Source of the DNA: an uncultured Anaerolineales bacterium
Lineage (GTDB): Bacteria > Chloroflexota > Anaerolineae > UBA7937 > B3-Chlor
DNA length: 64,000 nucleotides
Assembly: GCA_964433755.1 (NCBI GenBank)
Contig: CAYSSR010000002.1
Location: 212,220 to 276,219, forward strand
Reading direction: 5' to 3'
The translations under genes were made by a program, and so were the position numbers. Below the pieces are notes generated by a model. That model had not been told where the DNA came from and searched no databases. It saw only the letters and a program-made list of their open reading frames with translations. The stretch's first letter is position 1; each line of letters begins with the position of its first letter. This document shows, piece after piece, positions 7,964 through 48,638 of this stretch.

Positions 7964-8020
7964 TAACAGGATCGATACCAGAGCAAGGGACGCATCCACT
8001 CGTTGATATGGGGGTGACAC

Positions 8021-9533: not shown

Positions 9534-9536
9534 GAG

Positions 9537-33385: not shown

Positions 33386-34405
33386 CTATGCGGCAAACAG
33401 CTTACCTATCTCATCTCGCGGGAAGCTTGGAAGGTCCCTCACCATCCCACCACTTCTGATCTTGATTCCTTCACCGGGTGGCCTGATCTGGCCGATCACC
33501 GTTGCAGGGACGTGATCCGAGACCAACGTCTCCACGAGTCGTTCTGCCTGCACCGTGGGCAGGGTCAGGACCAGGGCCCCCGAGGCGATGGTGCCCAACG
33601 GGTCCAGGCCAAACTCCGCGCAGAGCGCCGATGACTCCGGCAGGATCTCGATCTTCTCTTCTTCGATCATCATCCCTACACCTGCGGCGATCCCCACTTC
33701 GCGCAGCCCCATGGCCAGGCCTCCCTCGGTCGGATCGTGCATGGCGTGAACCTCGCAGTTGTCGGAGGCCCATCTGGCCTCCCGGAACACGCTGATCCCC
33801 GGGTCGTGGAGGTAGTCCTGCGCGCGGGCGATGAGATCATCCCCGTGGCCCCTCTCCCTCAGTGAGGCCTCCCTCTCGCGGGCGACGATCGCGGTCCCCT
33901 CGATGGCGATACCCTTGGTGAGCACGATGGCATCCCCCACTCGGGCGCCGGCTGTCGTGATGAGGCGCTCTTTCTCCACCTCGCCGAGCATGTGCCCGAC
34001 GACCACCGGCCGATCGAGACCATAGGTGATCTCCGTGTGTCCGCCGACCAGAGAGATGCCCAATCCCTTGCACGAGGCGTGCATCTGCCGGAGTATCTCC
34101 TCGACCAGCGTCTCGTCGCTGCTTTCTTCGGGCAGCAGCACCGTCGCCAGAAACCAGAGAGGGCGGGCTCCGGTGGTCACCAGATCGTTGGCGTTCACGT
34201 TCACAGCGTACCATCCGATCTGATCCGTGGCGAAGGTGATGGGATCGGTCTTGGCCACCAGGTACCGCTCTCCCATGTCGAGCACGGCTGCGTCCTCCCC
34301 AATCCTCGCCCCCAGCACCACCCGCTCATCTTCGAGACGGTACTGGTCGAGCAACCGGCCCAACACGTCTGACGGCAACTTTCCTACCGGGAATCGTCCA
34401 CCCAC
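33386..34405 (-). CDS. AIR-synthase (PurM-like) family protein of unknown function
   Basis: GKLP start, GEDAAV, KTDPIT, VNVNANDL, VGGHTE, MHDPTEGG; lacks the SelD (C/U)GCK N-terminus. Confidence 0.88.
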   Translation of the reverse strand: MGGRFPVGKLPSDVLGRLLDQYRLEDERVVLGARIGEDAAVLDMGERYLVAKTDPITFATDQIGWYAVNVNANDLVTTGARPLWFLATVLLPEESSDETLVEEILRQMHASCKGLGISLVGGHTEITYGLDRPVVVGHMLGEVEKERLITTAGARVGDAIVLTKGIAIEGTAIVAREREASLRERGHGDDLIARAQDYLHDPGISVFREARWASDNCEVHAMHDPTEGGLAMGLREVGIAAGVGMMIEEEKIEILPESSALCAEFGLDPLGTIASGALVLTLPTVQAERLVETLVSDHVPATVIGQIRPPGEGIKIRSGGMVRDLPSFPRDEIGKLFAA

Positions 34406-34519
34406 CAAGTCCTCCCTCGCCCCTTCTCTCTCGAGCCAGCGAGTGCCGCTCCCGGCACCCATTATACGGCAACCCCTTCTGCCTCGCCTGGGCGCAGCCA
34501 CACCACGGATGGGAAGGGT

Positions 34520-35512
34520 TTACCTCCGGACGTAGCCGTGCTCTCGGAACCAGGCCACCGCTTTCCCCAACGCTTCCCTCGCAGGTGTCTGCCGCAGGCC
34601 CAACTCTCTCACAGCCTTGCTGGAGTCGAAGAACATCCGCTTGCGGGCCAGTCTCACGGTTGCCGGAGTCATCTGAGGCTGGCGTCCAGGGAGAAAGCGA
34701 TATGCCGCAGCGTACACATAGGAGAGACCAAGGACTGGGTAATAGGGCAGCCGTAACCTGGGCGCCGGCAAGCCAGTCAGGTCAGCCAGGGTGTCGAGCA
34801 TCTCTTTCAGAGTCAGGTTCTCGTGCCCCAGGATGTACCGTTCCCCAACCCGGCCCTTCTCTGCCGCCAGGAGATGGCCCTCGGCCACGTCCTCGACGTC
34901 CACGATATTCAGACCTGTGTCCAGATACGCAGGCATACGCCCGTTGAGGAAATCCACGATGGTGCGGCCTGTGGGTGTAGGCTTGATGTCGCGCACGCCC
35001 ACCGGGGTACTGGGGTTGACGATGACGACGGGTAGGCCTCTACTGGCGAAGTCTCTGGCCACCTCTTCCGCCAGGAACTTGCTGCGCTTGTAGTCGCTGA
35101 TCATGTCGGCCAGCCTCGCCGGCGTGTCCTCAGTCCCAGGGCTGCCATCCCTCGGCAGGCCCAGCGTGGCTACAGAACTCGTGTACACCACCCGTTCGAC
35201 CTGTGCGGCCTGGGCTGCGCGGAGCACGTTCCGGGTGCCTTCGACGTTGACGTCGTAGAAATCCTGGCGTGGGCTCCACCAGTAGCTGTACAAGGCGGCC
35301 ACATGGTAGACCTGCTCGCATCCTACCATGGCCGAGGAGAGACTCGCCGGGTCCCGCACATCGCCAGTGACCAGTTCAACTTTCAGATCAGCGATGTTGC
35401 GCAGGTCCGCCCCGGCGCGCACGAGCGCTCTCACCTGGTGCCCCGACGCCAGCAGTGCGCGCACGACGCTGGATCCCACGAACCCCGTCGCCCCCGTCAC
35501 CAAGGCCTTCAC
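34520..35512 (-). CDS. hpnA: HpnA-like NAD-dependent epimerase/dihydroflavonol reductase family protein
   Basis: LVTGATGFVG, HVAALY, YTSSVATLG, YKRSK, VNPSTPVG.RDIKPTPTG, GRMPAYLDTGLN. Confidence 0.8.
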   Translation of the reverse strand: MKALVTGATGFVGSSVVRALLASGHQVRALVRAGADLRNIADLKVELVTGDVRDPASLSSAMVGCEQVYHVAALYSYWWSPRQDFYDVNVEGTRNVLRAAQAAQVERVVYTSSVATLGLPRDGSPGTEDTPARLADMISDYKRSKFLAEEVARDFASRGLPVVIVNPSTPVGVRDIKPTPTGRTIVDFLNGRMPAYLDTGLNIVDVEDVAEGHLLAAEKGRVGERYILGHENLTLKEMLDTLADLTGLPAPRLRLPYYPVLGLSYVYAAAYRFLPGRQPQMTPATVRLARKRMFFDSSKAVRELGLRQTPAREALGKAVAWFREHGYVRR

Positions 35513-35825
35513 CGACTCAGCCTCCCATGCCCTCCAGACCATTCTAGCTCAGTTCTGTCCCCTTAACCACCCATTCCTGTTGGCCGGTATACGCCGGACC
35601 TACCGACGCTGTCCAGGAACTGGCAGTTCCTGACAGGTTCTGGCAGGTCGGTCCACTCTGCGGGACAGCCAGGATAGCTTCTGGGAGGGCGTCCGGTAGT
35701 TTTCGGCAGTTCCGATGTGTTACAAGGACTGTGGATTCGCACATCGTCTCCTATCCAGCTTTCAAAGGCACGGTTCACGCAGGAGTGCGCCATCCGCCAG
35801 CAATCAGAAGAGGGGGTACGCCAGC

Positions 35826-37295
35826 GTGAAAACCATCCTGTTTGTACTGCCGGCTCTACAGGAAGTCCTCTCCCAGGAATTCCGCCAGATCAAGTACTCA
35901 CTGTTCCCGCCTTTGAGCCTCCTGACCCTCGCGGGGCTGGTCCCTGAGGGAAGGTACAACCTCGTGGTGAGAGACGAGCACGTCGAAGATGTCTTCGTCG
36001 AAGGAGACGTAGACCTGGTGGTCATGACCGTCTACGTCTCCTCTGCCAGGAGAGCGTACGAGATCAGCGACTTCTATCGGGCTCGGGGTGCGAAGGTGTT
36101 CCTGGGCGGGATACATCCCACCACGATGCCAGAGGAGGCCGCTCAACACGCGGACAGCATCTGCCTCGGCCCCGGCGAATCTGTGTTCCTCCAGATGCTC
36201 GAGGACTTCGAGCATGGATGCCTGAAGCAATACTACCACGGACACAGAGACAGGGACGTCTCCAGGGTTCCCCTTGCGCGCCGGGACCTGATGAACACGG
36301 GCAAGTACCTCGTCCCGAATACCTCGGCGGTTTCCAGGGGCTGCCTCTACTCCTGCGACTTCTGCTACAAGGAGAGCTTCTGGGGCAAGAACTACTATGA
36401 GTTTCGTCCCTTAGCCGACGTCAGAAAGGAGTTGGACACCTTCCGGCACAAGTTCGTATTCTTCCTGGACGACAATCTGATGGGCAACCGCCGAGAAGCG
36501 AGAAGGCTCTTCGCCTTACTGAAAGAGTACCACTTCGTCTGGCAGGCGGCTGCCTCCATCGACACCGCCTATACGCCAGGGTTCCTGGAGGACGCCTACG
36601 AAGCAGGCTGCAGAAGCCTCTTCGTCGGGTTCGAGTCCATCACCAAAGCCAACATGGAACGTGCCCACAAGCCTCAGAACCAGAAGTACGACTACGCTGG
36701 CGCCATCAGGAGATTCCACGATGCGGGGATCATGATCAACGGTAGCTTCGTTCTTGGCTTCGACGAAGACGATCCCGACGTCTTCGCCAGGACGGTCGAA
36801 TTCGCCATCCGAAACAAGATCGAGACGGCGACCTTCCACATCTTGACTCCCTTCCCCGGCACCAGATTGTTCGCCAGGCTGGAGGCAGAGGGCCGCATCC
36901 TGCATCGGGATTGGAGCGCCTATGATACCCGTCACGTCGTCTTTCAGCCCAGACTCATGACCCCGTCCGAGCTAGAGGAGGGGTACTGGTGGTCCTACGA
37001 GGAGTTCTACTCGTATGGGTCGATTCTTCGCCGATCAGTCGGGCTACCGAACCCTCTGAAGAGGCTGGTATACAACGTGGGCTGGAAGAAGATGGACACT
37101 CTCTGGGGTTTTGCGATAGACCACAACCTGATTCCTCACTTACTGCCCCTATTCGAGTTTGCTCTGGCGAGGGGTACGTCGCCGCGAGGTTGCAGCCCAG
37201 AGGCGGAACTCAAACGCCTGGTCGGAGGGGCACGGGAGAGTCGTGAAATGGAAGGGGTAGCGGGAGTGGGTGATGAGCGAACCCACCTCGGTTAG
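35826..37295 (+). CDS. B12-binding-domain radical SAM protein
   Basis: PPLSLLTLA, GGIHPT, SRGCLYSCDFC, FLDDN, GFES, TPFPGT. The last ~40 codons look non-conserved. Confidence 0.9.
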   Translation: MKTILFVLPALQEVLSQEFRQIKYSLFPPLSLLTLAGLVPEGRYNLVVRDEHVEDVFVEGDVDLVVMTVYVSSARRAYEISDFYRARGAKVFLGGIHPTTMPEEAAQHADSICLGPGESVFLQMLEDFEHGCLKQYYHGHRDRDVSRVPLARRDLMNTGKYLVPNTSAVSRGCLYSCDFCYKESFWGKNYYEFRPLADVRKELDTFRHKFVFFLDDNLMGNRREARRLFALLKEYHFVWQAAASIDTAYTPGFLEDAYEAGCRSLFVGFESITKANMERAHKPQNQKYDYAGAIRRFHDAGIMINGSFVLGFDEDDPDVFARTVEFAIRNKIETATFHILTPFPGTRLFARLEAEGRILHRDWSAYDTRHVVFQPRLMTPSELEEGYWWSYEEFYSYGSILRRSVGLPNPLKRLVYNVGWKKMDTLWGFAIDHNLIPHLLPLFEFALARGTSPRGCSPEAELKRLVGGARESREMEGVAGVGDERTHLG

Positions 37296-37355
37296 CTCAT
37301 CACTACCCAGAACGGTGCTGGAAACCAGGGAGGCCACTGGGTCTCAACCACCCCC
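37261..37355 (-). pseudogene. Full-length altered duplicate of tRNA-Sec (anticodon position reads CCA; 3' half refolded)
   Basis: GGGGGTGGTTGAGACCCAGTGGCCTCCCTGGTTTCCAGCACCGTTCTGGGTAGTGATGAGCTAACCGAGGTGGGTTCGCTCATCACCCACTCCCG; about 75/96 identical to selC at 40604-40699 by hand; acceptor stem and D-stem strands identical. Confidence 0.8.
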
Positions 37356-37603
37356 GCGTCTGACTGTCACAGCCATTCTCGCCAGCACAGCGCGGGCGAG
37401 ACGGCGCCTGGCAGAGATCTCCCGCGGACTTGTGCGCCGCCCACACCGGAAGTAGCGCCCGGCGCACTCTGACACCACGCCGGGCGCCAACCGACAAATG
37501 TCTACCCCGCAAGACGTCGCCGGCCACTGTCGACCCCAGCAGGCCAGGCAGCTGGATCGACACAGAAGTCGTCGGCGCTGCTGCCGCCTCGCAGAACAGC
37601 ACC

Positions 37604-38452
37604 TCAGGAACCCTTCTCCCTCCACAGGCTCGAGTCGGGCGTGAACAAGGGAGAACCGAACTCTTCGACACCGAACTGGCCGATCTTCTCCTGCGTGGGT
37701 ACAGATATCAGCCAGTCGATGAACTCGTTCGCGATGTCGGAGTTGATCTCCGGGCTCTTCTCCGGGTTCACTGCCATGACACCGTAGGGGTTGAACAGAA
37801 TGCTGTCGCCCTCCACCAGGATCACGAGCTCGGTACCCTCGAGCGTGCGAGCGAGGTACGTGGCCCGATCTGAGAGGGTGTAGGCCTGCTGCTCATCGGC
37901 CATGGTGAGCACCGCTCCCATGCCCTGCCCAGCCGAGACGTACCACGCACCCTCGGGCTCGACGTTCGCTGCTGCCCAGATCGCCTTCTCCTTGGTGTGG
38001 GTTCCGGAGTCGTCACCCCTGGAGACGAAGGCGGCCTCGGCCCCCGCGATCATGCCAAACGCCTCGGCTGCTTCGCCCATACCTGCTACGCCCGCAGGGT
38101 CCGCCTCTGGGCCTACGATGACGAAGTCGTTGTACATCACATCCTCACGACGTACCCCATGCCCCGCATCCATGAACGCATCTTCTCTGGCTCGCGCATG
38201 CACCAGGAGCACGTCGGCATCGCCGGCCTCGCCGATCTCGAGCGCCTGGCCAGTGCCCACGGCAACCACTTCCACTTTGACGTTATACTCCTCCTCGAAG
38301 TCGGGAAGAATGTAGTCCAGCAAGCCCGAATCCTGCGTACTGGTCGTGGTAGCCAGGGTCATGGTCTGCGGTTCCGCTGCCGGAGCGCCACACCCTGCCG
38401 CCAGGCTCAGCAGTACGGCACTAAGACAGAGCCAAATCCATAGCTTCCTCAT
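37604..38452 (-). CDS. tupA: Tungstate ABC transporter substrate-binding lipoprotein
   Basis: LATTTSTQDSGLL (TTTS motif), AVGTGQAL, FVSRGDDSGTH, YTLSDRATY; lipobox AAGC. Confidence 0.93.
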   Translation of the reverse strand: MRKLWIWLCLSAVLLSLAAGCGAPAAEPQTMTLATTTSTQDSGLLDYILPDFEEEYNVKVEVVAVGTGQALEIGEAGDADVLLVHARAREDAFMDAGHGVRREDVMYNDFVIVGPEADPAGVAGMGEAAEAFGMIAGAEAAFVSRGDDSGTHTKEKAIWAAANVEPEGAWYVSAGQGMGAVLTMADEQQAYTLSDRATYLARTLEGTELVILVEGDSILFNPYGVMAVNPEKSPEINSDIANEFIDWLISVPTQEKIGQFGVEEFGSPLFTPDSSLWREKGS

Positions 38453-38582
38453 GTCTCACTCTCCTGCGTTTCTTTCTCCCATGGTCTGCATCTCAGCCAT
38501 CACCGTTGACTGCTCCCCTTCACATGGTTCACCCTCCCTCTACATTCTGTCAGCCAGCAAGGCTCATCGGACGAGACCCAGC

Positions 38583-39314
38583 TCAGTACGTCATCTCGCC
38601 CCGAACGAAGGCCGCGGTGCGTGGGTCGCGAGGCGACTGGAAGAACTTCTCTACCTGGGCTGTCTCCACGATATGCCCGTCCAGCAACAGCGCTACCTGA
38701 TGAGCCAAACGCCTGGCCTGGAACACGTTGTGCGTCACCAGCACAAGTGTGGTTCCCTTCTCGCTGTTGAGCGTACGCACGATTTCTTCGATCAGTCCCA
38801 CGTTATACGGGTCAAGATTCGCGGTCGGCTCGTCCAGAAGCAGCACGTCTGGATCGAGCACCATAGCTCGGGCCAACGCCACACGTTGCCCTTCACCTCC
38901 GGAGAGCGTTCGAGCTTGTCGCCTGGCGAAGGTTCGCAGACCCACCTCTTCCAGGGCCGCCTCTATCCGCCTGGCGCTGTGCCGCCGACCTCTCAGGTGC
39001 AGACCGAACTTCACGTTGTCCCACACCGTCCTGTTTAGTAGCATGGGGCGCTGAAACACAGTAGTCACTCGACGAGACAGTTCGAGTGGCATGGGCTTGG
39101 TGGCGCTGAACTCCTCTCCGTGATAACGCACGTATCCGGTGGTGGGTGGCTCCAGGAAGTTCAGCAACCTGAGCAGGGTGCTCTTGCCCGCGCCACTCGG
39201 TCCTACGAGCGCGAAAATCTCTCCACGATGGACATCCAGCCTATCCACTTGCAGGACAATCTGACCGTCGTACTCCTTCGTTGCGCCACGCACCTCGTAG
39301 ACAGACTCGCTCAC
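38583..39314 (-). CDS. tupC: Tungstate ABC transporter ATPase
   Basis: GPSGAGKS Walker A, LSGGE, LLLDEPT, H-loop VTHN; context. Confidence 0.9.
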   Translation of the reverse strand: MSESVYEVRGATKEYDGQIVLQVDRLDVHRGEIFALVGPSGAGKSTLLRLLNFLEPPTTGYVRYHGEEFSATKPMPLELSRRVTTVFQRPMLLNRTVWDNVKFGLHLRGRRHSARRIEAALEEVGLRTFARRQARTLSGGEGQRVALARAMVLDPDVLLLDEPTANLDPYNVGLIEEIVRTLNSEKGTTLVLVTHNVFQARRLAHQVALLLDGHIVETAQVEKFFQSPRDPRTAAFVRGEMTY

Positions 39315-40033
39315 TGGTCAAACGTCCTTCCTTGCAGGCGCAGCATGGCCACGTTCGTGGCGAAGGAGAGTCCCAGTAGAACCACTCCCAGAGACATCGC
39401 CAAGTCAAAGTTGCCTTTCCGTGTCTCCAACACGATCGCGGTGGTGAGCACTCTCGTGCTGTGCTCGATGTTACCGCCGACCATCATCACCGCGCCCACT
39501 TCTGAGATGATGCTGCCAAAACCAGCAATCACAGAGACCACGACGCCCACCCGTGCTTCCATCAACACAGTCGCCGCGGTCTGCCACCGTGTGGCGCCCA
39601 GAGCACGCACCTGTCTCCGCAGTTCTGGATCCACCCCCATGACCGCAGCCATCGTAAAGCCAGCCACCAGCGGAAAGGAGATGATGCTCTGCGCTACTAC
39701 CATAGCCGCGGGGGTGAAAAGCGATGGAATGAGCCGGGAGCCTAGCTGCCCCAGGGGTCCACTGCGTGAGAGCATCAAGTAGACAAAGAGACCTACTACC
39801 ACCGGCGGAAAGCCCATGCCGGTGTAGAGCAGGGCGATCACGAGCCGACGCCCGAAGAAGCGACTCAATCCGAGAAAAGCTCCGAGAGGAATCCCGATCA
39901 GTGTGCTGATCAGCAGAGCAACACCCGACACCGAAAGGGACAGCCGCACGATCTCGTAGAGAGCGCTATCACCCGTGACGATCAGGTACAAAGCCTGGAC
40001 TAGACCATTCAGGATCTCTTCGATGGTCTGCAC
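39311..40033 (-). CDS. tupB: Tungstate ABC transporter permease
   Basis: GFPPVVVGL, ALGATR, AGFGSIISEVGA, GGNI...TRVLTTAI. Confidence 0.92.
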   Translation of the reverse strand: MQTIEEILNGLVQALYLIVTGDSALYEIVRLSLSVSGVALLISTLIGIPLGAFLGLSRFFGRRLVIALLYTGMGFPPVVVGLFVYLMLSRSGPLGQLGSRLIPSLFTPAAMVVAQSIISFPLVAGFTMAAVMGVDPELRRQVRALGATRWQTAATVLMEARVGVVVSVIAGFGSIISEVGAVMMVGGNIEHSTRVLTTAIVLETRKGNFDLAMSLGVVLLGLSFATNVAMLRLQGRTFDQ

Positions 40034-40213
40034 TCCTCACAACTGGACCCCTATCGCCATAGACGGTCCTGGGTCACTACCCCGCTGATCGCTCTCGAGC
40101 CCCGGCAGGAAAGCCTCCGACCTCAACGTTCTGAGCCTCTTGTCTCCCGACACCAGAGAAGACAGAGAAGAGGCACCTCGGAAAAGAGATGCCTTTCGGG
40201 AACCGGGCATACC

Positions 40214-40245
40214 AAAAGGACGGCGCCCCGAAAAGGACGCCGTCC
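40214..40245 (-). terminator. Intrinsic terminator (riboswitch expression platform of tupBCA)
   Basis: Minus strand GGACGGCGTCC-TTTTCG-GGGCGCCGTCC followed by TTTT. Confidence 0.8.
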
Positions 40246-40265
40246 GCAAACAGCCCGTCGGCGGA

Positions 40266-40364
40266 TCTCCTTTCCAAGAATGGGAGGTATAGCCGTTTCC
40301 AGCTATGCCCTATCGGCCTCGCTCCATTGGTCCGTGCTGTCCATTAGGTGACGAAGCTCGGAGA
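40266..40364 (-). ncRNA. Moco/Tuco riboswitch upstream of tupBCA
   Basis: TCTCC GAGC...CCTAA...AGGGC ATAGCT GGAAAC GGCTAT ACCTCCC ATTCTT GGAAA GGAGA; P1 is TCTCC/GGAGA; conserved CCTCCC...GGAAAGG core. Confidence 0.88.
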
Positions 40365-40396
40365 CACGACAAGATTAGATGTTCAAGAGCCAAGGG

Positions 40397-40425
40397 ATTA
40401 TGGCACATGTCTGGCAAGATGTCAA
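40397..40425 (-). promoter_or_regulatory. Sigma70 promoter for riboswitch-tupBCA
   Basis: TTGACA-17 bp-CATAAT with TGn extension. Confidence 0.75.
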
Positions 40426-40601
40426 GGCGGGTCTCTCCCGGGTCGGGAGGTTGAGACCGGCCGGGAGCCAACGTGGCCGCGAACTCCGGCTCTCCTGCAG
40501 ACGACTGCGGCCCCAGAACCTCATCAAGGGGAAGGAAGCATCTACGCCAGGCCAGAGCCCGCCTGCGGTGTGTCAGGCGAGGATGGGCTCCGTCGAGACC
40601 A

Positions 40602-40699
40602 GGCGGGAGTGGATGGGAGTCGAACCCACCATGGCTAGCTCGTCGCTACCCATCAACGGTTTTGAAGACCGCGGAGGCCACCGGGTCTCTACCACCCCC
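40602..40699 (-). tRNA. selC: tRNA-Sec (anticodon UCA)
   Basis: 8-bp acceptor stem GGGGGTGG/CCACTCCC, G73, 6-bp D-stem with 4-nt loop, anticodon loop CT-TCA-AA, long variable arm, GTGGG-TTCGACT-CCCAT T-arm; the genomic 3' end reads CCT. Confidence 0.97.
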
Positions 40700-40708
40700 A
40701 CTCCACCA

Positions 40709-40737
40709 ATCATACAACCTTTGGCGTGGACAGTCAA
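40709..40737 (-). promoter_or_regulatory. Sigma70 promoter for selC
   Basis: TTGACT-17 bp-TATGAT, 9 nt upstream of the tRNA 5' end. Confidence 0.75.
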
Positions 40738-40850
40738 GAGACAGCGATGGGACATCTCCCAGGGATCTTGGGGCATGCCAGGCCAAGCACGCCAGATGGT
40801 GAGAAAGACCGGACCACCGCACCGAGAAGGGGTGCGCTATCCCGATCGTC

Positions 40851-41537
40851 CTAGTCCAGCTTCAGGGGCAGCCAATGGTCGCCACACCACCGGACGATGG
40901 CGACAGCCTCCCCTCCTCTACGAGCGGGCCGCAGCTTGTCCGCCGCCACCAGCCCCTCGACCACCCGCTCTCCCTGCTCGGTACGTACGGCCGATATGCC
41001 CGCTTCCTGCAAGACCGACACCGGCTGCCGGCCTCGGAGCTCGCGCGATCTCCCCACCAGCACGTAGCGGCCGTCGTCGCCACTGGCGGCCAGACCCACC
41101 GCCGCCAGTGCTCCGATCACTCCGCTCTCGTCCCCGCCCAGACCCTCGAGTGGAAGACCATGGAGGCTGGCCAAAGAGCGTGCCTCATCCTGCGTAGCCA
41201 ATCGACTCTTAACCTGACGACCGAAGTCCACGACTGCGGGACCCACCACCTGAGCCACGCAGAGACCTGGATCGCTTCCCGGCTGGTGGCCATCCAGCAC
41301 CATCTGACGAACGCGCCGCAGAACGTCGTGGGGGTCGGGATTCTCGTTCCCATCCAGCAGGATGGCTGCCGAGCTGTTCTTCTTGGTGCAGGGGATGCGT
41401 GGATCCCTCAGCAGTTGGTGCCGCGTCACTCCCAAGACCACCAAGTCAGCCGAGAGCGACGCCGCAATCTGACGAGCCAGGTATCCAGTGCCCCGCGACT
41501 CCAACGTATCCGTGTCGTCTAGACCGACAATCAACAT
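40851..41537 (-). CDS. Stand-alone TiaS-like (DDTD-motif) ATP-utilising domain protein
   Basis: VGLDDTD, DPRIPCTKKNSS, SDPG, GVIGALAAVG correspond to TiaS N-terminal domains; 228 aa with no OB-fold or zinc ribbon. Confidence 0.75.
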   Translation of the reverse strand: MLIVGLDDTDTLESRGTGYLARQIAASLSADLVVLGVTRHQLLRDPRIPCTKKNSSAAILLDGNENPDPHDVLRRVRQMVLDGHQPGSDPGLCVAQVVGPAVVDFGRQVKSRLATQDEARSLASLHGLPLEGLGGDESGVIGALAAVGLAASGDDGRYVLVGRSRELRGRQPVSVLQEAGISAVRTEQGERVVEGLVAADKLRPARRGGEAVAIVRWCGDHWLPLKLD

Positions 41538-41543
41538 CTCTAC

Positions 41544-41572
41544 TTGACTAACACCTCGTGATCACGTATACT
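41544..41572 (+). promoter_or_regulatory. Sigma70 promoter for the 41634-DUF134 operon
   Basis: TTGACT-17 bp-TATACT; the spacer contains palindrome CGTGATCACG (41557-41566). Confidence 0.8.
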
Positions 41573-41574
41573 TA

Positions 41575-41594
41575 TTTTGGGCAAATGCCCAAAA
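41575..41594. promoter_or_regulatory. Palindromic operator TTTTGGGCA-AA-TGCCCAAAA
   Basis: Perfect 9-2-9 inverted repeat starting 3 bp after the -10 box. Confidence 0.75.
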
Positions 41595-41633
41595 CCAATC
41601 GCTGCTTCCACCCATACACAAGAGGAGGCTCCC

Positions 41634-41882
41634 ATGAGCAAGATCTTCGTTCGAGAGAGACGCCACGTCGGGCCCGGAGCAGGGCGACCCCGCTTCGCCA
41701 TCGTCGCGTCGCAGGGCGCTGATCTACGGGTCTACAAGACTCGCGTGCGCCGCTCGGAGCTAGAGACCATCGCGAGCCAGAGCGGGGCAGAGATCGTCCA
41801 TCTGCCCAGGGGCGAACAGTCGGACGAGGAGGAGCAACAAGCCACCCAGCGCCGCGGACGCCGTGGGCGCGATGCTGGGTAG
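41634..41882 (+). CDS. 82-aa hypothetical protein
   Basis: AGGAGG RBS, coding-like codon usage, 6 bp upstream of the DUF134 gene. Confidence 0.7.
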   Translation: MSKIFVRERRHVGPGAGRPRFAIVASQGADLRVYKTRVRRSELETIASQSGAEIVHLPRGEQSDEEEQQATQRRGRRGRDAG

Positions 41883-41888
41883 GGCTCC

Positions 41889-42215
41889 ATGCCCCGGCCT
41901 CGCAAGCGTCGAGTCCTGGCCAGCGAGCCTCGACCGGTGATCTACAAGCCGGCAGGGGTACCACTGAACCGCCTAAGCTCAGTGTCACTACTGCACGAGG
42001 AACTTGAGGCTCTGCGGCTGGCCGACGCAGAGGGTATGCTCCAGACAGCGGCAGCGGACCGGATGGGCATTTCTCGCTCCACCTTTCAGCGTGTGCTTGC
42101 CCGAGCGCGTTCGCGGGTGGCTCTTGCTCTGACAGGCGGCCATGCCCTGCGTATCGAGGGCGGTAGCTACGAAGTGCAACCACCACGCCTTCGGGGGCCG
42201 CGCCGCAGGCGGTAG
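41889..42215 (+). CDS. DUF134 HTH protein (predicted DNA-binding)
   Basis: MPRPRKRR...YKPAGVPL...EELEALRLADAEG..Q..AA.RMGISRSTFQR.L..AR..VA.AL..G.ALRIEGG. Confidence 0.92.
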   Translation: MPRPRKRRVLASEPRPVIYKPAGVPLNRLSSVSLLHEELEALRLADAEGMLQTAAADRMGISRSTFQRVLARARSRVALALTGGHALRIEGGSYEVQPPRLRGPRRRR

Positions 42216-42255
42216 TGCACGAGACGTCCTGCTCGGAACCAGAGGGCACTACCAG

Positions 42256-43086
42256 TCACTCCCGACGGTAGATCCGCGTGCCCGGGTTCTTCCCCTCCAG
42301 CGCCAGTGTGAGGTTGCCGGGGGCCAGGCCGTTGATGATCTGTACCTCTCGTACACTTCTGGCTCCTGCCAGGGCCCGCACCATGGCCCGTTCCACCGCC
42401 AGATCAGCCAGGTCCAACTCCAGGAGTTCGTTGACCTCGATCTCCGGGATAAACTCGGCCTGCGGCTCCTTCTTGGGGTCAGCCGTGTACAGACCTTCCT
42501 CGTCCTTGACCAGGATACAGCATCTGGCGCCCAGGACCTCTGCGGTGAGAAAGGCCCCGAAGTCGGTGCGGTGAGGCGGAATCCGCCCTCTGATCGGCGG
42601 CTCCTCCCAGAGTCCGTAGGGAGGCATGGCGTGCATTACCGGTATCGTGCCCAAGGCCAGGAACGAAGGGAGCTTGACCAGATCGTCGTGTCCGATCTTC
42701 ACACCGCCGCGAGGAGCAAGGAGGATGGAGATCATCAGGGCGTTCTGCTCGCTGATGCTCGAACCCAGCTTGGCTAGCACGCCTGTGGGCATCCCCAGGT
42801 CCAGCGCAATGGAGTACGCGTGACGGCTACGGGTCCCGCCTCCCGTCACCACCAGGAGATCGTGTCCTTCTCTCGCTGCGACGATCTCCTCGATCAGAGG
42901 CAGCACCACCTTACGCCCGCGATCGATGATGCTCTGTCCCCCCAGCTTGACCACGTTGAGATCAGGCAAAGGTCGGAACACGTGCCCGATCTCGGTGCCC
43001 TCGAGCAGACCCTTGTCCATCAGCGACTCGGCCATCAACTCTGTCTCGATGTGCAGCCGGCCGCTGTCATCCCTTACCAGGCCCAT
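42256..43086 (-). CDS. Molybdenum storage protein (MosA/MosB)-like amino-acid-kinase-fold protein
   Basis: VKLGGQSIIDRG, TGGGTRSRH.Y.IALDLGMPTGVL, EQNALM, MPPYGLWE, IPPHRTD.GAFL.AE, VKDEEGLYTADPK. Confidence 0.82.
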   Translation of the reverse strand: MGLVRDDSGRLHIETELMAESLMDKGLLEGTEIGHVFRPLPDLNVVKLGGQSIIDRGRKVVLPLIEEIVAAREGHDLLVVTGGGTRSRHAYSIALDLGMPTGVLAKLGSSISEQNALMISILLAPRGGVKIGHDDLVKLPSFLALGTIPVMHAMPPYGLWEEPPIRGRIPPHRTDFGAFLTAEVLGARCCILVKDEEGLYTADPKKEPQAEFIPEIEVNELLELDLADLAVERAMVRALAGARSVREVQIINGLAPGNLTLALEGKNPGTRIYRRE

Positions 43087-43197
43087 CTGTGCCTTCCCTT
43101 CGTGTCTGGCAGCCTGCCCCCAACCCAACGCCAAGCAGACGAGCCTCGCCCGTCTACATACACAGAAACAGGATGAGACGGGCTGCGGCTGGCCCGT

Positions 43198-43722
43198 TCA
43201 GCTCCCCTGCAACCGATCCTGGTACCCGTGACGCAGATCCGACCCGGCAGCCTCTCGGAGGATCTCGATCCCGTGCGGCAGAACGGGGAAGATCACCTCC
43301 AGCCCCTCTCGCACAGCCTTGGTGCTCCCGGGCAGATTCACCACCAACGTCTGACCACGGATGCCGGCGACACCTCGGGAGAGCATCGCATGAGGCGTAG
43401 CTTTGGCACCCTCCGTTCTCATGGCCTCAGCCAGTCCCGGCGCCTCCCGCTCGATGATCCCCCTGGTAGCCTCTGGAGTAACGTCTCGCGGCGCGAAGCC
43501 GGTCCCCCCCGTAGTCAGGATCAGATCGAGGTCTTTCACGTCACACCATTCTATCAAGACTTGGCGGATGGAGTCCTGCTCATCCGGAACAACGGCTTGC
43601 TCCGTCACCTCGGCCTGCAGTCGCTCCACAACCAGATCCCTGATCAGGGGGCCGCTGGCATCTTCGGCCTCGCCCCGAGAGCATCGGTCGCTCACTGTCA
43701 GGACGCCCACGGAGATCTTCAT
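43198..43722 (-). CDS. mog: MogA/MoaB molybdopterin adenylyltransferase
   Basis: VLTVSDR, DASG, VPDE, TTGGTGFAPRDVTPEA, SRGVAGIRG.TL.VNLPGS. Confidence 0.93.
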   Translation of the reverse strand: MKISVGVLTVSDRCSRGEAEDASGPLIRDLVVERLQAEVTEQAVVPDEQDSIRQVLIEWCDVKDLDLILTTGGTGFAPRDVTPEATRGIIEREAPGLAEAMRTEGAKATPHAMLSRGVAGIRGQTLVVNLPGSTKAVREGLEVIFPVLPHGIEILREAAGSDLRHGYQDRLQGS

Positions 43723-45005
43723 GCGCCACTCCTAGACGACTCCAAGTCCCAAACTGAAGGGGCTGTATCACTGCCGCCCCTTTCCAGCAGCATGACCGTC
43801 ACACGGCTGCCCGCCGGCGCACGACTCCAGTCCTCCGGGATGATCGCCAAACCATCCGCTTCGATCATGGAGCTCAGAATCCCGGACCCCTGTTCTCCGG
43901 TGAGATACGCCTGCCACTCGCCGGCCTCCTCCAGGCGCACGCGCAAATAGTGACGGCGATCGTCCTTCCGCGACACTTCGTCCATGAGCACAGCCTCAAG
44001 GGTCGGACGCCTCCACTCCGTGGCGCCCTGCATCCTGAGAATCGCAGGGCGGGCGAAGAGCTCGAAGGAGATCATCGCCGAGACGGGATTCCCCGGCAAG
44101 CCCAACAACGGCACCCCCTCGATCTGTCCAAAAGCCAGAGGCTTTCCGGGCTTCATCCGTACACGCCAGAAAGTCATCTGGCCCTCAGCGGCCAACACTT
44201 CCTTCACCACGTCGAAATCGCCCACAGACACCCCGCCCGAGGTCAAGAAGAGGTCCACGCCTTGCGCCAGGCCGGTTCTGATCATCTCTGTCAGCTCTTC
44301 CACCTGGTCCCGAGCGATGCCCAGGACCACCGGAATGCCACCGCACTGCATCACCTGCGCGGCGTTGGAGTAGCTGTTCGCATTTCGTATCTTGCCCGGG
44401 GCCAGAGGCTGATCAACCTCCACCAACTCGTCGCCGGTAGCGAGAATGCCCACTCTCGGCCGCCGGGTGACCATGATCTCCTTCCGCCCCAGAGTGGCAG
44501 CCATGCCCACCTCCTGGGCACGGATCCGAGTTCCTGGACGGAGCACCAGCGTTCCCGCGCGGACATCCTCTCCAGCCGCTCGAGTGTCCTTGCCCACGGG
44601 CACGTCCACCTTCACGTCCACCCAGTCTCCATCACGGTCGGTATCCTCAAAGCGTACCACAGCATCAGCGTCCTCCGGCAAGGGCGCCCCGGTCATGATG
44701 CGTATGGTCGTGCCCGGCTCCACCGCCTTGTCGCTGACGTAGCCCGCCCCCAGGTCGCCCACCATCAGCAGGCGTCTTGGAGACTCGGGTGTCGCCCCCA
44801 CCGTGTCAGCCGCTTGCACAGCATAGCCGTCCATGGCCGAGTTGGTGTACGGTGGTATATCGACGTCGGCGCGCACGTCCTCGGCCAGAACGCGGCCCAG
44901 AGCCTCCAGTATCGGTACTCGCTCCGGCTCCAGGAGATCAAAGAAGCCCAGTACTCGTTCCAGGGCTTCTTCAACGCTCAGAACTGGGTACAGCTCACTC
45001 ACCAT
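43719..45005 (-). CDS. moeA: MoeA molybdopterin molybdo/tungstotransferase
   Basis: NSAMDGYAV, RIMTGAPLP, ATGDEL, NANS, TSGGVSVGDFD, KPGKP, LPGNPVS. Confidence 0.95.
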   Translation of the reverse strand: MVSELYPVLSVEEALERVLGFFDLLEPERVPILEALGRVLAEDVRADVDIPPYTNSAMDGYAVQAADTVGATPESPRRLLMVGDLGAGYVSDKAVEPGTTIRIMTGAPLPEDADAVVRFEDTDRDGDWVDVKVDVPVGKDTRAAGEDVRAGTLVLRPGTRIRAQEVGMAATLGRKEIMVTRRPRVGILATGDELVEVDQPLAPGKIRNANSYSNAAQVMQCGGIPVVLGIARDQVEELTEMIRTGLAQGVDLFLTSGGVSVGDFDVVKEVLAAEGQMTFWRVRMKPGKPLAFGQIEGVPLLGLPGNPVSAMISFELFARPAILRMQGATEWRRPTLEAVLMDEVSRKDDRRHYLRVRLEEAGEWQAYLTGEQGSGILSSMIEADGLAIIPEDWSRAPAGSRVTVMLLERGGSDTAPSVWDLESSRSGA

Positions 45006-45436
45006 TCGCCCTTCCATTCAGCACCATCTGCCCAGACTTCTTTCTTCCAGACGGGCACTATCTCCTTCAGCCGGTCGATCGCATAGCGCAATGCTTCGAA
45101 GACCTCTTCCCGATGGGCTGCGGACAGGGCGATGACTGCACTCACCTCCCCGGGCTGCAAGCGTCCAACACGATGAACGATAGCGACTCTGTCGATGCTC
45201 GCCCATCTTTGGCGGATCTCTTCACCCACCTGCTCCAGCATCTCTTCGGCCATCCCGGGATAGTGCTCGTACTCCAGGTAGCGAACTGCTCGACCATCGG
45301 TGTGGTCGCGAGCGACGCCTACGAACGAGGCCACAGCCCCGATGGAAGGGCTCGCCACCTGCGTCACGACCTCGTCCACATGCAACTCCCGCGTGGTAAT
45401 CTCGAACGGTCCGAGGGATGATGCTGTCGTCACCAA
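44999..45436 (-). CDS. moaE: Molybdopterin synthase catalytic subunit
   Basis: GAVASFVGVARD, LEYEHY, HRVGRL, SAAHREE.F, IDRLKEIVPVWKKE. Confidence 0.95.
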   Translation of the reverse strand: MVTTASSLGPFEITTRELHVDEVVTQVASPSIGAVASFVGVARDHTDGRAVRYLEYEHYPGMAEEMLEQVGEEIRQRWASIDRVAIVHRVGRLQPGEVSAVIALSAAHREEVFEALRYAIDRLKEIVPVWKKEVWADGAEWKGEW

Positions 45437-45438
45437 TC

Positions 45439-45684
45439 CTACCCTCCCGATACCGGCGGTATGCAGGCGACCTCATCGCCCTCGAACAGTTCCGTTCCCG
45501 GATCGGCATACCTCCGATTCACCGCGATCCTGACCGCGGCAGCGTAGCTCCCCAGAACCGGGTACCCCTCAACGAGGTCGGAAAGCAGTTGCCCGGCAGT
45601 CATTCCAGTATCGATCTCCCAATCCAGCTCTTTCGTGCCGAGCGCCTCCCGGGGACCACCGAAGAGCTTGATCTTCACTCGCAT
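45439..45684 (-). CDS. moaD: MoaD sulfur carrier
   Basis: 81 aa ubiquitin-like; AVNRRY; C-terminal PPVSGG. Confidence 0.95.
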
Positions 45685-46163
45685 GGGGACTCCTCGAGCA
45701 CGAGATCCCCGCTGCTCCCTCCGCTCTTCCTCACCAATCTGATCTCCCCGATCCTCATCGTCCTCTCCACGGCTTTGGCCATGTCATAGATGGTCAGCGC
45801 AGCCACACTCACCGCTGTGAGCGCCTCCATCTCCACGCCGGTCTGCCCTCGGCTTTGCGCCGTGGCCGTGATCTCTATCCGCGAGCCGGTTTCATCGACC
45901 TGGAAGTCCAGATCTACCTTGGTCAACAGAACAGGGTGACACAGCGGGATGAGCTCGGGAACCTTCTTGGCAGCCTGAATGCCTGCTACCCTGGCCACGG
46001 CGAACACATCCCCCTTGGGTAGTGCCTTCTCCACAATGAGACGGAGGGTCGCCGGACGCATGCTCACCTCTCCCCTGGCCACAGCCACCCTCTTCGTAGC
46101 TGGCTTGTCACCTACGTCCACCATTTGAGCGCGACCTTCATCGTCCAGATGAGTCAATTCCAT
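45675..46163 (-). CDS. moaC: Cyclic pyranopterin monophosphate synthase
   Basis: [39 protein letters not shown]. Confidence 0.96.
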
Positions 46164-46241
46164 GGTGCCCCCCATATGCCGTGGATGATCGCCACTGACG
46201 CAGCCAGACCGTTGTCGTCCCCCAGCCAGTCGACCAAGACT

Positions 46242-47237
46242 CTAGCCGCCGAGCTGAGACATGGTTCGCCGCAGCGAAGTCACCGACTCCGCCAGGTGGT
46301 GCTCGCGCGGCTTGCTCTGCACACCCCTGAGCAGCAGTTCCCTAATCTCGGCCACGCCCGCGCCCTGCCGCAACGGGGTCCGCAGATCGATCTCCGCGTC
46401 CGAGAGAAGACACGGCCGAAGCTGCCCGTCAGCCGTCAGGCGCATCCTGTTGCATCGGCAGCAGAAATGCTCGCTGATCGGGGTTATGAAGCCCACAGTG
46501 CCCCGCGCTCCCGGCAACCGGTAGTAGCGCGCAGGTCCGTTCCCGACAGATACCTTCGCTGCTGTCAGTGGCCCAAGCTCGCTCTCGATCTTTCCCCGCA
46601 TCTCCTCCGCGGTCACGACCTTCTGTCGCCATTCGTCGCCGACAAGGCTTCCACTGCCTACCGGCATTAGCTCGATGAAACGCAGATCCCAGCCCTCCTC
46701 TATCGTTTGGCGAGCGAAGTCAACGATCTCATCATCATTGATGCCCCTGATGACCACCGCGTTGATCTTTACGGGATCGAGCCCCGTTCTCCTGGCAGTC
46801 TCTATTCCATCCAGCACGTCCTGGAGCCGCCCGCCACGAGTGATCCACGCGAAGCGCTCCGGACGCAGTGAGTCGACGCTGACGTTGACCCTACGGAGCC
46901 CCGCCTTGGCCAGAGCAGATGCATAGCGCGATAGCAGAGTGCCATTTGTGGTCATCGCCAGGTCGTCGATCCCCGGGATGCCGGATAGCATCCTCACCAG
47001 ATCCACTACCCCCAACCGAACCAAAGGCTCACCACCTGTCAGGCGCACCTTGCTGATCTGTAGTTCTGCGGCCGCGCGCACTACGGTCTCGATCTCTTCG
47101 TAGGTCAGAATCGCTCCGTGCCCGACCGACGGCACACCCTCCTCGGGCATACAGTACTCGCATCGCAGGTTGCAGCGATCAGTCACAGAGATGCGAAGAT
47201 AGCTGATCGGACGATTGCACGGATCCAGATGTGTCAT
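46242..47237 (-). CDS. moaA: GTP 3',8-cyclase
   Basis: YLRISVTDRCNLRCEYC, RLTGGEPL, FCCRCNRMRLTADG.LRPCL, C-terminal GG. Confidence 0.96.
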   Translation of the reverse strand: MTHLDPCNRPISYLRISVTDRCNLRCEYCMPEEGVPSVGHGAILTYEEIETVVRAAAELQISKVRLTGGEPLVRLGVVDLVRMLSGIPGIDDLAMTTNGTLLSRYASALAKAGLRRVNVSVDSLRPERFAWITRGGRLQDVLDGIETARRTGLDPVKINAVVIRGINDDEIVDFARQTIEEGWDLRFIELMPVGSGSLVGDEWRQKVVTAEEMRGKIESELGPLTAAKVSVGNGPARYYRLPGARGTVGFITPISEHFCCRCNRMRLTADGQLRPCLLSDAEIDLRTPLRQGAGVAEIRELLLRGVQSKPREHHLAESVTSLRRTMSQLGG

Positions 47238-47354
47238 CGACCCCCGACGACTCCCTCTTGACCGTCAGCCCACACGGCCAGACAGCTTACGCCTCCCACC
47301 GTAGCCACTTCTCTCCCCTCAGCGGGCACCGTGCCCACCAAGCCACGAAGGTTC

Positions 47355-47388
47355 AAAAAAGGCGCCCCCTGAAAGGTAGTGGACGCCT
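47355..47388 (-). terminator. Intrinsic terminator (riboswitch expression platform of moa operon)
   Basis: Minus strand AGGCGTCC...GGGGCGCC followed by TTTTTT. Confidence 0.8.
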
Positions 47389-47410
47389 CACCAAATCCTG
47401 TCTGCAGCCC

Positions 47411-47509
47411 TTCTCCTTTCCAACCACGGGAGGCATAACCGTTTCCAGTTGTGCCCTGTCGCCCAATACCCGTAAGCCCGAGGACTCCCAGGGTCATTGG
47501 GTCGGAGAA
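47411..47509 (-). ncRNA. Moco/Tuco riboswitch upstream of moaA
   Basis: TTCTCC GACCCAATGACCCTGGG...GGGTATTGGG...AGGGC ACAACT GGAAAC GGTTAT GCCTCCC GTGGTT GGAAA GGAGAA. Confidence 0.9.
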
Positions 47510-47530
47510 TCGGTCTATACTCTCGATTCT

Positions 47531-47559
47531 ATTATACGGTCCGCAGAGCCGGAACGCAA
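47531..47559 (-). promoter_or_regulatory. Sigma70 promoter for riboswitch-moa operon
   Basis: TTGCGT-17 bp-TATAAT. Confidence 0.7.
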
Positions 47560-47696
47560 ACCCTGGCTAGTCTAGGCACTGTATGTGGCGGGCACGCGCT
47601 CTCGGTGGAGCAGACACATCCAAGAGGATCCGGTCCCCCGTGAGCAGGACAGGCTGGCAGCGGGTATGACAGCATTCTCAGCAACGCTGGATCGTG

Positions 47697-48638
47697 CTAG
47701 CGGAGCGCCTCCTCGAGGGCGCGCTGGGTCTCACGCGTATCAAGGGGACCAGGGTAGTTGTACAACGGCCCTCTCGGCGGCTCGTTGTAGTAGGGACGGT
47801 TGCAGCCTGGGCAGCCCGACGTCCGAAAGGCCTGGCCATCCAGCAGCGCTCTCTCCAGCTCGTCGCGTCCCAGTCCGAAGGACACCACCTGCCCTCGAGG
47901 CGAGAAGGCGAAGTCCTCGACCGCCACCCGGCCATTCACGATCAGGTATCTGGCTATCTGAACCCGCCGGTAGCTCGACACAGACGGAGAAGCCTGGTCT
48001 TCCATGGTGGTTCCAGGGATCGGAGTGAAGGCGAAGAGCGCAGGTGTGACCTCCCAATCGTGGAGGAGGGCTATCATGCGCACCATCTGTTCCTCCGTCT
48101 CCCCCAGCCCTACCATCAGGTGAGTGCTGACCCGCCCGGGAAAGCGATGTGCGGCCTCTTCGATGACTGCGAGGGACGCGCGGAGATTCCCTCCCTTCAC
48201 CCGGTGGAAGGCCTCCTCGTTGACGGCGTCGAGACTCAGCCCTATCCTCTCCACACCAGCCTCGAGCAGGTCCTCGGCCTGATCCGCGTTAGCCACCACA
48301 GAAACGCTGAGAGGCACCTTCCGGCCCAGTCGGGTCGCTATGGCTCCCACGCGATCCAGATTCCCAGGGCCGACCGTGACCTGCAAACAGCACCGCTCGA
48401 TGCTGCCCTTCGAGTAGGCCTCTTCCACCGCAGAGAGAGTCTCCTCCTCGTCACACTGCGGCCAGGTGACGCGAGACAATGCCAGCGCCGAGGCCCTGCT
48501 GCTTCGCGCCTGAGCACAGAAAGCACAGTCACGACGACAACGCCCCCCCACCATCAGGTAAGCCGTGGTCGGGGGGGCGTCCAGCCAAGTCTCTGCCAAG
48601 CCCAGGACGCCAAGCGTCCCTGATGAGACTTTGATCAA
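47697..48638 (-). CDS. lipS2: LipS2-type (biotin-synthase-related) radical SAM protein
   Basis: TTAYLM..G.CRRDCAFC, LSRVTWP, C-terminal TSGCPGCNRP matching the LipS2 TxGCPxC(N/D)RP motif; TTG start after AGGAG. Confidence 0.72.
   Translation of the reverse strand: MIKVSSGTLGVLGLAETWLDAPPTTAYLMVGGRCRRDCAFCAQARSSRASALALSRVTWPQCDEEETLSAVEEAYSKGSIERCCLQVTVGPGNLDRVGAIATRLGRKVPLSVSVVANADQAEDLLEAGVERIGLSLDAVNEEAFHRVKGGNLRASLAVIEEAAHRFPGRVSTHLMVGLGETEEQMVRMIALLHDWEVTPALFAFTPIPGTTMEDQASPSVSSYRRVQIARYLIVNGRVAVEDFAFSPRGQVVSFGLGRDELERALLDGQAFRTSGCPGCNRPYYNEPPRGPLYNYPGPLDTRETQRALEEALR

Follow-up and report, generated by a model that had tools for sequence, protein, structure and literature searches.

Two selC copies around a tungstate transporter module in an Anaerolineae genome: probable recombination of a 10.3-kb block into the locus and stranding of the resident tRNA-Sec gene

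Why does a bacterial chromosome carry two full-length copies of selC, the gene for the selenocysteine tRNA (tRNA-Sec), on either side of a tungstate uptake module? The question is raised by a stretch of 64,000 nucleotides (64 kb, here called the window) from an uncultured Anaerolineae bacterium of a sediment metagenome, in which an intact selC and a degenerate second copy, selC', enclose a Moco/Tuco (molybdenum and tungsten cofactor) riboswitch and the genes tupB, tupC and tupA. An earlier note on this DNA read the interval as a 3.2-kb islet that came in at selC. Comparison with related loci leads to another answer, which we regard as probable: a larger block that carried a working selC of its own was joined by recombination into a locus of a different layout, and the selC already resident there was stranded and decayed.

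The intact selC lies at 40602–40699 on the minus strand (the strand of all features described here unless noted otherwise) and is the only tRNA gene called by ARAGORN in the window. Its anticodon is UCA, it matches Rfam family RF01852 with 70.3 bits (gathering score 47) with all arms aligned, and a G directly follows the acceptor stem, as the G73 discriminator of tRNA-Sec; by these properties it belongs to the family. A sigma-70-like promoter, TTGACT-17-TATGAT at 40737–40709, precedes it, gene and promoter together spanning 40602–40737, and the tRNA is 100% identical to the selC of the related loci L003, L007, L017, L018, L025, L026, and L093. Next comes the tup leader (40218–40425), which consists of a promoter (TTGACA-17-CATAAT, 40425–40397), an aptamer at 40251–40375 that matches RF01055 with 68.1 bits (gathering score 36) and has no P3 hairpin, and, directly after the aptamer, an intrinsic terminator (40245–40218) followed by a T-run; the promoters and the terminator were found by pattern scans. 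A second such aptamer stands ahead of a moa operon further upstream (47397–47519, 71.4 bits). The P3 columns of the family are deleted in both, and aptamer, missing P3 and expression platform place them in the P3-less class. The leader is followed by tupB (permease, 39311–40033), tupC (ATPase, 38583–39314) and tupA (binding protein, 37604–38452), whose Pfam domain architecture fits a binding protein, permease and ATPase. The TupA model is the only NCBIfam match of the binding protein (229 bits, below its equivalog cut-off of 400), the TupB model is the best for the permease (164 bits, below its equivalog cut-off of 320), and thousands of homologues of the tup genes are annotated 'tungstate transport'. 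The three genes are predicted to encode a Tup-like tungstate ABC importer. A GC-rich hairpin read from the sequence after tupA (37450–37489) is probably the end of the tup transcript and its terminator. The hairpin has no T-run, and its Rfam matches, to miRNA and CRISPR-repeat families, are weak and spurious.

The second copy, selC', occupies 37260–37355 and was identified by repeat search, Rfam and positional orthology. Aligned over 98 columns, it is 80.6% identical to selC; the 19 differences are made up of 11 transitions, 5 transversions, and 3 gaps. The two copies have no identical stretch longer than 10 nt, and 3344 nt separate their starts. The repeat spans exactly the tRNA body and nothing further, and the match is not due to chance. 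The description in the earlier note of a minus-strand order of selC, promoter, riboswitch, terminator, tupB, tupC, tupA, and altered selC, with the tup module bracketed by two full-length direct copies, agrees with all of this, as does its statement that an integrase is missing: a domain search of every open reading frame (ORF) in 37100–47730, on either strand, found no integrase, recombinase or transposase domain.

By the usual criteria selC' is not a working tRNA gene. It escapes ARAGORN and scores 26.3 bits with Rfam, under the gathering score of 47. With UUCCAGC as its anticodon loop, the copy has the anticodon CCA instead of UCA, and the CCCA of the 3' strand of the T-stem is replaced by AUCA, while the acceptor and D arms are intact and the acceptor stem has no change at all. 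No sigma-70-like site was found upstream of selC' by pattern scan, whereas the genuine selC genes of the clade all have CTTGACT-N17-TATNAT. We therefore take it to be a pseudogene that is presumably silent. An allo-tRNA or recoding tRNA reading with CCA was considered and set aside, as the T-arm is destroyed, the promoter is absent and no second example was found.

The position of selC' is, on the other hand, that of the single selC of relatives. A convergent gene for a B12-binding radical-SAM protein (rSAM; Pfam; 35715–37295, plus strand) has its last 11 codons and stop antisense within the T-arm and acceptor side of selC' (37260–37295), and the same overlap is found between rSAM and the genuine selC of L001, L009, L020, L027, and L093. 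The 3' flank of selC' is 93% identical to that of L093 and 85–88% identical to those of L001 and L003. As both the 3' flank and the rSAM overlap match the single selC of these relatives, selC' is their positional orthologue. A retrotransposed tRNA copy was considered and set aside because of this native 3' flank. The changes in selC' have also turned the tail of the rSAM protein from AGVDGSRTHHG* into AGVGDERTHLG*.

What the locus looks like elsewhere was determined from a genome scan with the rSAM protein, which gave two Anaerolineae metagenome-assembled genomes (MAGs; L001 and L003), a metagenome scan with the product of the nearby AIRS-family gene, which gave 80 loci, and context look-ups of TupA, TiaS-like and MoaA homologues (L004–L006 and L087–L098). 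The selC slot in this Anaerolineae clade is recombination-prone, and molybdenum and tungsten (Mo/W) uptake and cofactor genes occupy it in four layouts between lipS2 and the AIRS-family gene. Type A has the order lipS2, selC, rSAM (full, remnant or absent) and AIRS, and is represented by 13 loci of about 10 distinct lineages (L001, L003, L007, L009, L011, L017, L018, L020, L023, L025, L026, L027, and L029). Type B runs lipS2, riboswitch, moa operon, amino-acid-kinase-family gene (AAK), DUF134, TiaS-like, selC, riboswitch, tupBCA and AIRS (L088; L097/L098 with L005, from one sample; L089 in part). In type C the order is lipS2, selC, two riboswitches, modABC, moaACDE, and AIRS (L012 and L013), and in type D it is lipS2, two riboswitches, modABC, moa operon, AAK, DUF134, TiaS-like, selC, rSAM, epimerase, and AIRS (L093 and L094). 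In the type C loci the single selC is directly followed by a tandem pair of Moco riboswitches, genes for a modABC-like transporter and moaA-C-D-E (3720–9830).

Each of the four layouts has exactly one selC; two copies are found in the window alone. The contig of L004, the closest relative of the tup interval, stops about 110 nt short of where selC' would lie, and that of L087 stops 9 nt short of selC, so that a second copy cannot be judged in either. The tRNA is identical or nearly so throughout the clade and its promoter is conserved. The type B locus L088 is collinear with 47530–37617 of the window and then jumps to the AIRS-family gene, with the TiaS-like gene before and the tup riboswitch after its single selC; L089 shows the TiaS-selC junction, L097/L098 the order lipS2, riboswitch, moaA, and L005, of the same sample as the latter, tupA followed by the AIRS-family gene. 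A selC followed by riboswitch and tupBCA is therefore the native single-selC order of type B (L088, and L089 in part).

The next question is where in the window the type B arrangement begins and ends. Upstream, BLASTN homology to the type A loci L003 and L001 breaks at 47729/47730, 35 nt before the stop codon of lipS2, a gene for a LipS2-family lipoyl synthase ('g313'; NCBIfam LipS2, 338 bits, cut-off 270) on the far side of the block. The motif CGCGTGAGA lies at this point within the 3' end of the gene (47729–47737), and type A homology stops at its last base. The following stretch, about 11 codons and the stop (47697–47728), is type B-like: the encoded tail, ...ETQRALEEALR, is the same in L093 and resembles that of the type B locus L097 (...EAKRATEEALS), unlike the type A tail, ...EISCALWEALS. 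At the other end a motif search found CGCGGGAGA (37418–37426), an 8/9 copy of the left motif; no second match of that quality occurs in the 248 nt that separate tupA from selC'. TCTC comes directly after this copy, just as type A lipS2 continues, and the repeat shared by the two junctions has the consensus CGCGKGAGA (8/9 nt).

Between this motif and selC' lie 62 nt (37356–37417) that align globally as a decayed relic of the type A lipS2 tail and the spacer from lipS2 to selC. The 71 nt from the motif to selC', aligned globally with the last 113 nt before selC of L003, gave z = 3.67 and p = 0.0005 in 2000 dinucleotide shuffles; the control alignment with the region upstream of selC in L093 gave p = 0.77, and alignments with L025, L027, and L020 were also significant. 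The alignment requires deletions of about 42 nt, which remove the −35 and −10 boxes. Significance was reached solely by this hypothesis-specific global alignment: local alignments of the region upstream of selC' with type A spacers were not significant (p = 0.1–0.2), nor was a local alignment of the two junction regions (p = 0.6). Since a relic of the type A lipS2 tail and spacer precedes selC', it is selC' that appears to be the original resident gene.

In neighbour-joining trees of the two flanks the window groups with L003/L007, L001/L009 branch off next, and the more distant outgroups are without exception of type A. The closest relative is the type D locus L093, whose nucleotide sequence is 93.6% and 93.1% identical in the two flanks and 90.2% identical within the Moco block. 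It has one selC and no tup genes, and is an exact empty site for a unit of 3344 bp: the 5' flank of its selC matches that of the intact selC of the window at 45 of 48 positions, and its 3' flank is about 93% identical to that of selC'. The empty-site check proposed in the earlier note is thus answered by an actual genome. L093 also shares the lipS2 breakpoint and tail of the window. Directly upstream of moaA it has tandem Moco riboswitches (6579–6701 and 6775–6895) and a modABC-like transporter (7035–9966, with a TOBE domain), at a place where the window has nothing comparable to the second riboswitch and modABC (47240–47356). Window and L093 therefore carry alternative Mo/W importers at the same locus, i.e., a transporter swap.

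The degree of decay of selC' can be set against these branch lengths. On the window branch, about 5% of 4-fold degenerate sites have changed since its separation from L093 and about 13% since its separation from L003/L007. With 19 changes in 97 nt, selC' is incompatible with the 5% rate (P ~1e-6); its decay fits 13% or slightly more, unconstrained DNA being expected to change somewhat faster than 4-fold sites, and so dates from about the split from L003/L007, not just from that of L093. Taken together, the break in lipS2, the junction motif, the relic, the collinearity with L088 and the timing argue that the arriving unit was probably a type B block of about 10.3 kb (47728–37418), with the Moco operon and a functional selC, and not an islet of 3.3 kb. 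A 10.4-kb single-insertion model built from L001 and L003 alone was set aside once L093 was found.

The following sequence of events would account for the locus. In a type A ancestor a type B block of about 10.3 kb would have been inserted between lipS2 and the resident selC, replacing nothing. The left joint would have formed by homologous recombination within the 3' end of lipS2, and the right joint at the 9-nt microhomology CGCGKGAGA, between the 3' untranslated region of the donor tupA and the recipient lipS2. Such an event, homology-facilitated illegitimate recombination, would need no integrase. In agreement with this, one breakpoint falls in a homologous anchor, the other joint shows microhomology, and the donor layout is found in nature (L088, L097, and L005). 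The block would have brought its own promoter-equipped selC, and the genome would briefly have had two selC genes. Donor and recipient would have had nothing but the tRNA itself in common around selC, which would explain why the repeat is exactly of tRNA size. The insertion would have placed the lipS2 tail, spacer and selC of the recipient downstream of tupA, and this selC was separated from its promoter, with deletion of the −35 and −10 boxes. Redundant and presumably silent, the stranded gene would then have decayed, its anticodon changing from UCA to CCA and its T-stem being lost. Today the intact selC would be transcribed from its own promoter, and tupBCA would be a separate unit whose P3-less, Tuco-type riboswitch terminates transcription when cofactor is plentiful.

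As L093 shares the lipS2 breakpoint and tail, a single insertion in the common ancestor of the window and L093 is the simplest reading. L093 would then have lost the 3.3-kb interval by recombination between selC and selC' while the copies were still alike, and would later have gained its second riboswitch and modABC. RecA-type excision between copies that share at most 10 identical bases in a row is unlikely by general homology requirements. The longest identical run of the present copies being 10 nt, the tup module should now be effectively locked in. The excision between the repeats that the earlier note wished to see checked left no trace in the Logan contigs of the source run, in which no joint linking selC and selC' was found, contigs of this kind dropping rare variants. 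A sister run contains an abundant type A relative with lipS2, a spacer of 126 nt and selC.

Several observations weigh against this history. The alignment of the relic is not significant for L001, L011, L017, and L023, and its signal comes from some 70 bases of decayed sequence. No sampled genome represents the donor lineage itself; outside L093, the closest matches to the block have only about 82% nucleotide identity (L004 and L087). The loss in L093 by recombination between selC and selC' is deduced from a single genome. Divergence between the window and L093 at 4-fold sites is uneven along 32878–54086 of the window, with 9–12% in the left flank (lipS2/holB), 13–23% in the Moco block and 15–19% in the right flank (rSAM/AIRS), so that later recombination within the locus must have blurred its history. 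Finally, 7 of the 19 changes in selC' build one hairpin, with a predicted fold of greater stability than that of the real tRNA, which random decay alone does not predict.

How do other explanations fare with the same data? If the islet alone had arrived, an L093-like ancestor with the Moco block and a single selC would have received the 3.3-kb riboswitch-tupBCA unit at selC and duplicated the whole tRNA, by Campbell-type recombination with a selC-carrying circle or through an integrase acting in trans. L093 offers exactly the empty site for a 3344-bp unit that this calls for, parsimony on the tup state alone, with L093 as the sister, favours a single gain, and in this clade selC does act as a hotspot of insertion, the general role in which the earlier note had named it: in L023 (3586–4352) an insert of 608 nt lies between a full selC and a repeat of 63 nt from the 3' part of that gene (98% identity), a classical att-like scar. 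Arrival of the islet leaves unexplained, however, why the junction motif and a relic of the type A lipS2 tail and spacer (p = 0.0005) should be found upstream of selC', why homology should break within lipS2 and why selC' should have 19 changes when about 5 are expected since the L093 split. It also has to contend with the collinearity of the whole of 47530–37617 with type B L088, with the absence of an integrase from the ORFs of 37100–47730, and with the similar identities of islet to L004 (82.4%) and Moco block to L087 (81.5%), both from the same sample, which suggest one shared history. We consider arrival of the islet unlikely, and the altered selC of the earlier note would be the resident gene, the functional one having come within the block. 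It is similarly unlikely that L093 is no deletion derivative at all and gained its Moco block independently, by a double crossover in lipS2 and selC with a modABC donor, never having had tup or a second selC. The homologies in lipS2 and selC permit such a replacement, L093 has the extra riboswitch and modABC that the window is without, and the 4-fold divergence of the Moco block (13–23%) exceeds that of the left flank (9–12%). Yet the window and L093 have the same lipS2 breakpoint and an identical type B-like tail and are sisters on both flanks, and two events at one breakpoint are less parsimonious than a single insertion.

A misjoin of type A and type B contigs from co-occurring populations at selC can hardly be the source of the arrangement. 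Several populations in the same samples share one and the same selC sequence, and independent assemblies do break there (L087 and L089, and the X1 contigs at 40602–40682, with minor branches of about 4.8x). Against an artefact stand one Logan contig that runs from rSAM through selC' into tupA (36500–37903) with no mismatch and another from tupA into selC (37877–40631). The Logan contigs of the source sediment run cover 36500–48500 and every junction at a uniform depth of about 28–30x, all pieces lie at about 28–29x and no alternative partner exists at that depth. Furthermore, selC' is too diverged for a repeat collapse, and the order TiaS, selC, riboswitch, tup is seen independently in L088. 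As a side observation, short-read MAGs of this group may often be misjoined or split at selC, where identical tRNAs have different flanks. A different matter, and one compatible with the joining of a type B block into a type A locus, is whether selC' after its stranding was remodelled under selection, as a hairpin that ends or protects convergent transcripts, as a tRNA-like processing site, or as a repeat whose divergence prevents deletion of tup. An inverted repeat search and folding revealed a new 14-bp hairpin in selC' (37270–37303, no strand assigned) with 13 of 14 Watson-Crick pairs, made from former variable-arm and T-arm sequence: its arms are the old 5' strand of the variable arm and the old 3' strand of the T-arm. 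Seven of the 19 changes raise the complementarity of these arms from 5/14 in canonical selC to 13/14 (on the 5' strand, two C-to-T changes and one G-to-A change; on the 3' strand, a cluster of 4 events). The fold of selC' reaches −49.0 kcal/mol (z = −4.07, none of 200 shuffles being as stable), that of the intact selC −45.3 kcal/mol (z = −2.48). The acceptor stem has stayed unchanged and the rSAM stop codon (37293–37295) lies inside the hairpin. On the other side, this is a single example, no T-run follows the hairpin by pattern scan, and one template-switch (quasi-palindrome) mutation could make the 3' arm without selection. The hairpin may stem from such a mutation, or it may have been selected for because it lies where the tupA and rSAM genes converge. 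That the stranded selC was rebuilt into a structured element, with the 14-bp hairpin stacked on the kept acceptor stem, i.e., exaptation of a tRNA-Sec gene, we hold to be doubtful, and doubtful to the same degree is remodelling under selection as such. If true, the rebuilt selC' would terminate transcripts or protect their 3' ends where the tup operon and rSAM converge, or act as a tRNA-like processing signal.

It is instructive to compare the locus with known systems. The selC islands of enterobacteria (LEE, PAI-I, and SHI-2) have a P4-type integrase, repeat no more than the 3' part of the tRNA, and keep the intact tRNA at the border of chromosome and island. The present locus resembles them in the variable DNA beside selC, the direct tRNA repeat at the far end and the presence/absence alleles. 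It differs in that no integrase is present, the repeat is of full length and 81% identical instead of short and near-identical, the working tRNA is inside the block and the copy at the border is dead; it is not an integrase-type island. That selC is a hotspot of variable regions was known already (bioRxiv 10.64898/2026.04.03.716425). Homology-facilitated illegitimate recombination has been described for naturally transformable bacteria. The locus shares with it one homologous joint (lipS2), one joint with microhomology (8/9 nt) and the lack of a site-specific recombinase. Unlike in the described cases, the process is here deduced from sequence alone, and the donor DNA is not unrelated but comes from a different layout of this locus. 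This type of recombination is mentioned in PMC2884548.

Duplicates and pseudogenes of tRNA-Sec are known, and a few bacteria have two selC genes (Santesmasses et al., 2017; PMC5330540). The human TRNAU2 copy originated by retrotransposition, and the second selC of bacteria is an adjacent or operon-level duplicate with compensating changes that is thought to be functional (PMC5330540). As in the tRNA-Sec pseudogenes of that study, the homology of selC' is limited to the tRNA body, its pairing is disrupted and it is judged non-functional; unlike them, selC' would be the original gene itself, left stranded and put out of action when its promoter was lost. The P3-less RF01055 aptamers form the Tuco-associated class (Regulski et al., 2008; PMC2408646), and the two in the window, which stand upstream of tup-like and molybdopterin-synthesis genes with an intrinsic terminator as the platform, show no essential difference from the RNAs reported there. 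They are a further example from Anaerolineae, with selC between two riboswitch units.

The locus is therefore a case of block acquisition by recombination and of tRNA pseudogenisation, both known already, and not a new kind of element, and the current view of selenocysteine and riboswitch biology is unchanged by it. It would provide a natural example of a self-regulated trace-metal module, with Moco/Tuco synthesis, a tungstate importer and a tRNA, gained without mobile-element machinery, for which homology in a neighbouring gene and 9 nt of microhomology would have sufficed, and of a tRNA gene on incoming DNA that supplants the resident one. For annotation it follows that a full-length direct repeat of a tRNA need not be an att site and that the native gene may be the degenerate one of the pair. 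The Mo/W slot at selC, with its four layouts, bears on the ecology of tungsten and selenium use. The physical coupling of tungsten uptake to the tRNA-Sec gene, to which the earlier note attached significance, points only weakly to a functional connection. The recurrent adjacency is what speaks for it, and the case is weak because the neighbouring AIRS-family gene (33386–34501), which is conserved beside the locus in all layouts, is not demonstrably selD. Its product scores 89 bits with TIGR00476, below the cut-off of 125, HypE and ThiL models score as well or better, the N-terminal Gly-rich Cys/Sec-Lys motif of SelD is absent from the protein, and its best match in the PDB is HypE, SelD reaching just 38 bits.

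Of the genes within the block, the Moco biosynthesis operon (43198–47237) is collinear with L088, L089, and L093 and comprises, all by Pfam, moaA (46242–47237), moaC (45675–46175), moaD (45439–45684), moaE (44999–45436), moeA (43719–45017) and mog/moaB (43198–43722). A complete moaA-moaC-moaD-moaE-moeA-mog operon with its own riboswitch thus lies 7 kb upstream of selC, within the imported block that carries tup. Downstream of it follow the AAK gene (42256–43134), a divergent DUF134 regulator (41889–42215, plus strand), a small ORF (41577–41882, plus strand), recognised as a member of the conserved module, and the TiaS-like gene (40851–41537), which encodes a protein of 228 aa with a TiaS_TCKD-like domain; the three other than the small ORF were assigned by Pfam. 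This module (40851–43134) is present in L087–L093. In many Chloroflexi contigs it is conserved at 65–88% amino acid identity beside genes for Mo/W transport, Moco synthesis or molybdoenzymes, and it may have an unrecognised role in Mo/W metabolism. The minus-strand ORF at 41572–42249 (225 aa) is a shadow of the two genes on the plus strand.

Beyond selC', the interval from selC to the AIRS-family gene (34500–36868 in the window) is a general indel hotspot. The epimerase gene that follows rSAM (34520–35542) is found in the window and L093 and is absent from L001 and L009, and in L003 and L007 the rSAM gene is reduced to its last 142 codons. The 608-nt insert of L023 encodes a hydrophobic peptide of about 54 aa on the opposite strand, and over 215 nt it is 82% identical to the selC-rSAM spacer of L017 (1179–1720) and L018.

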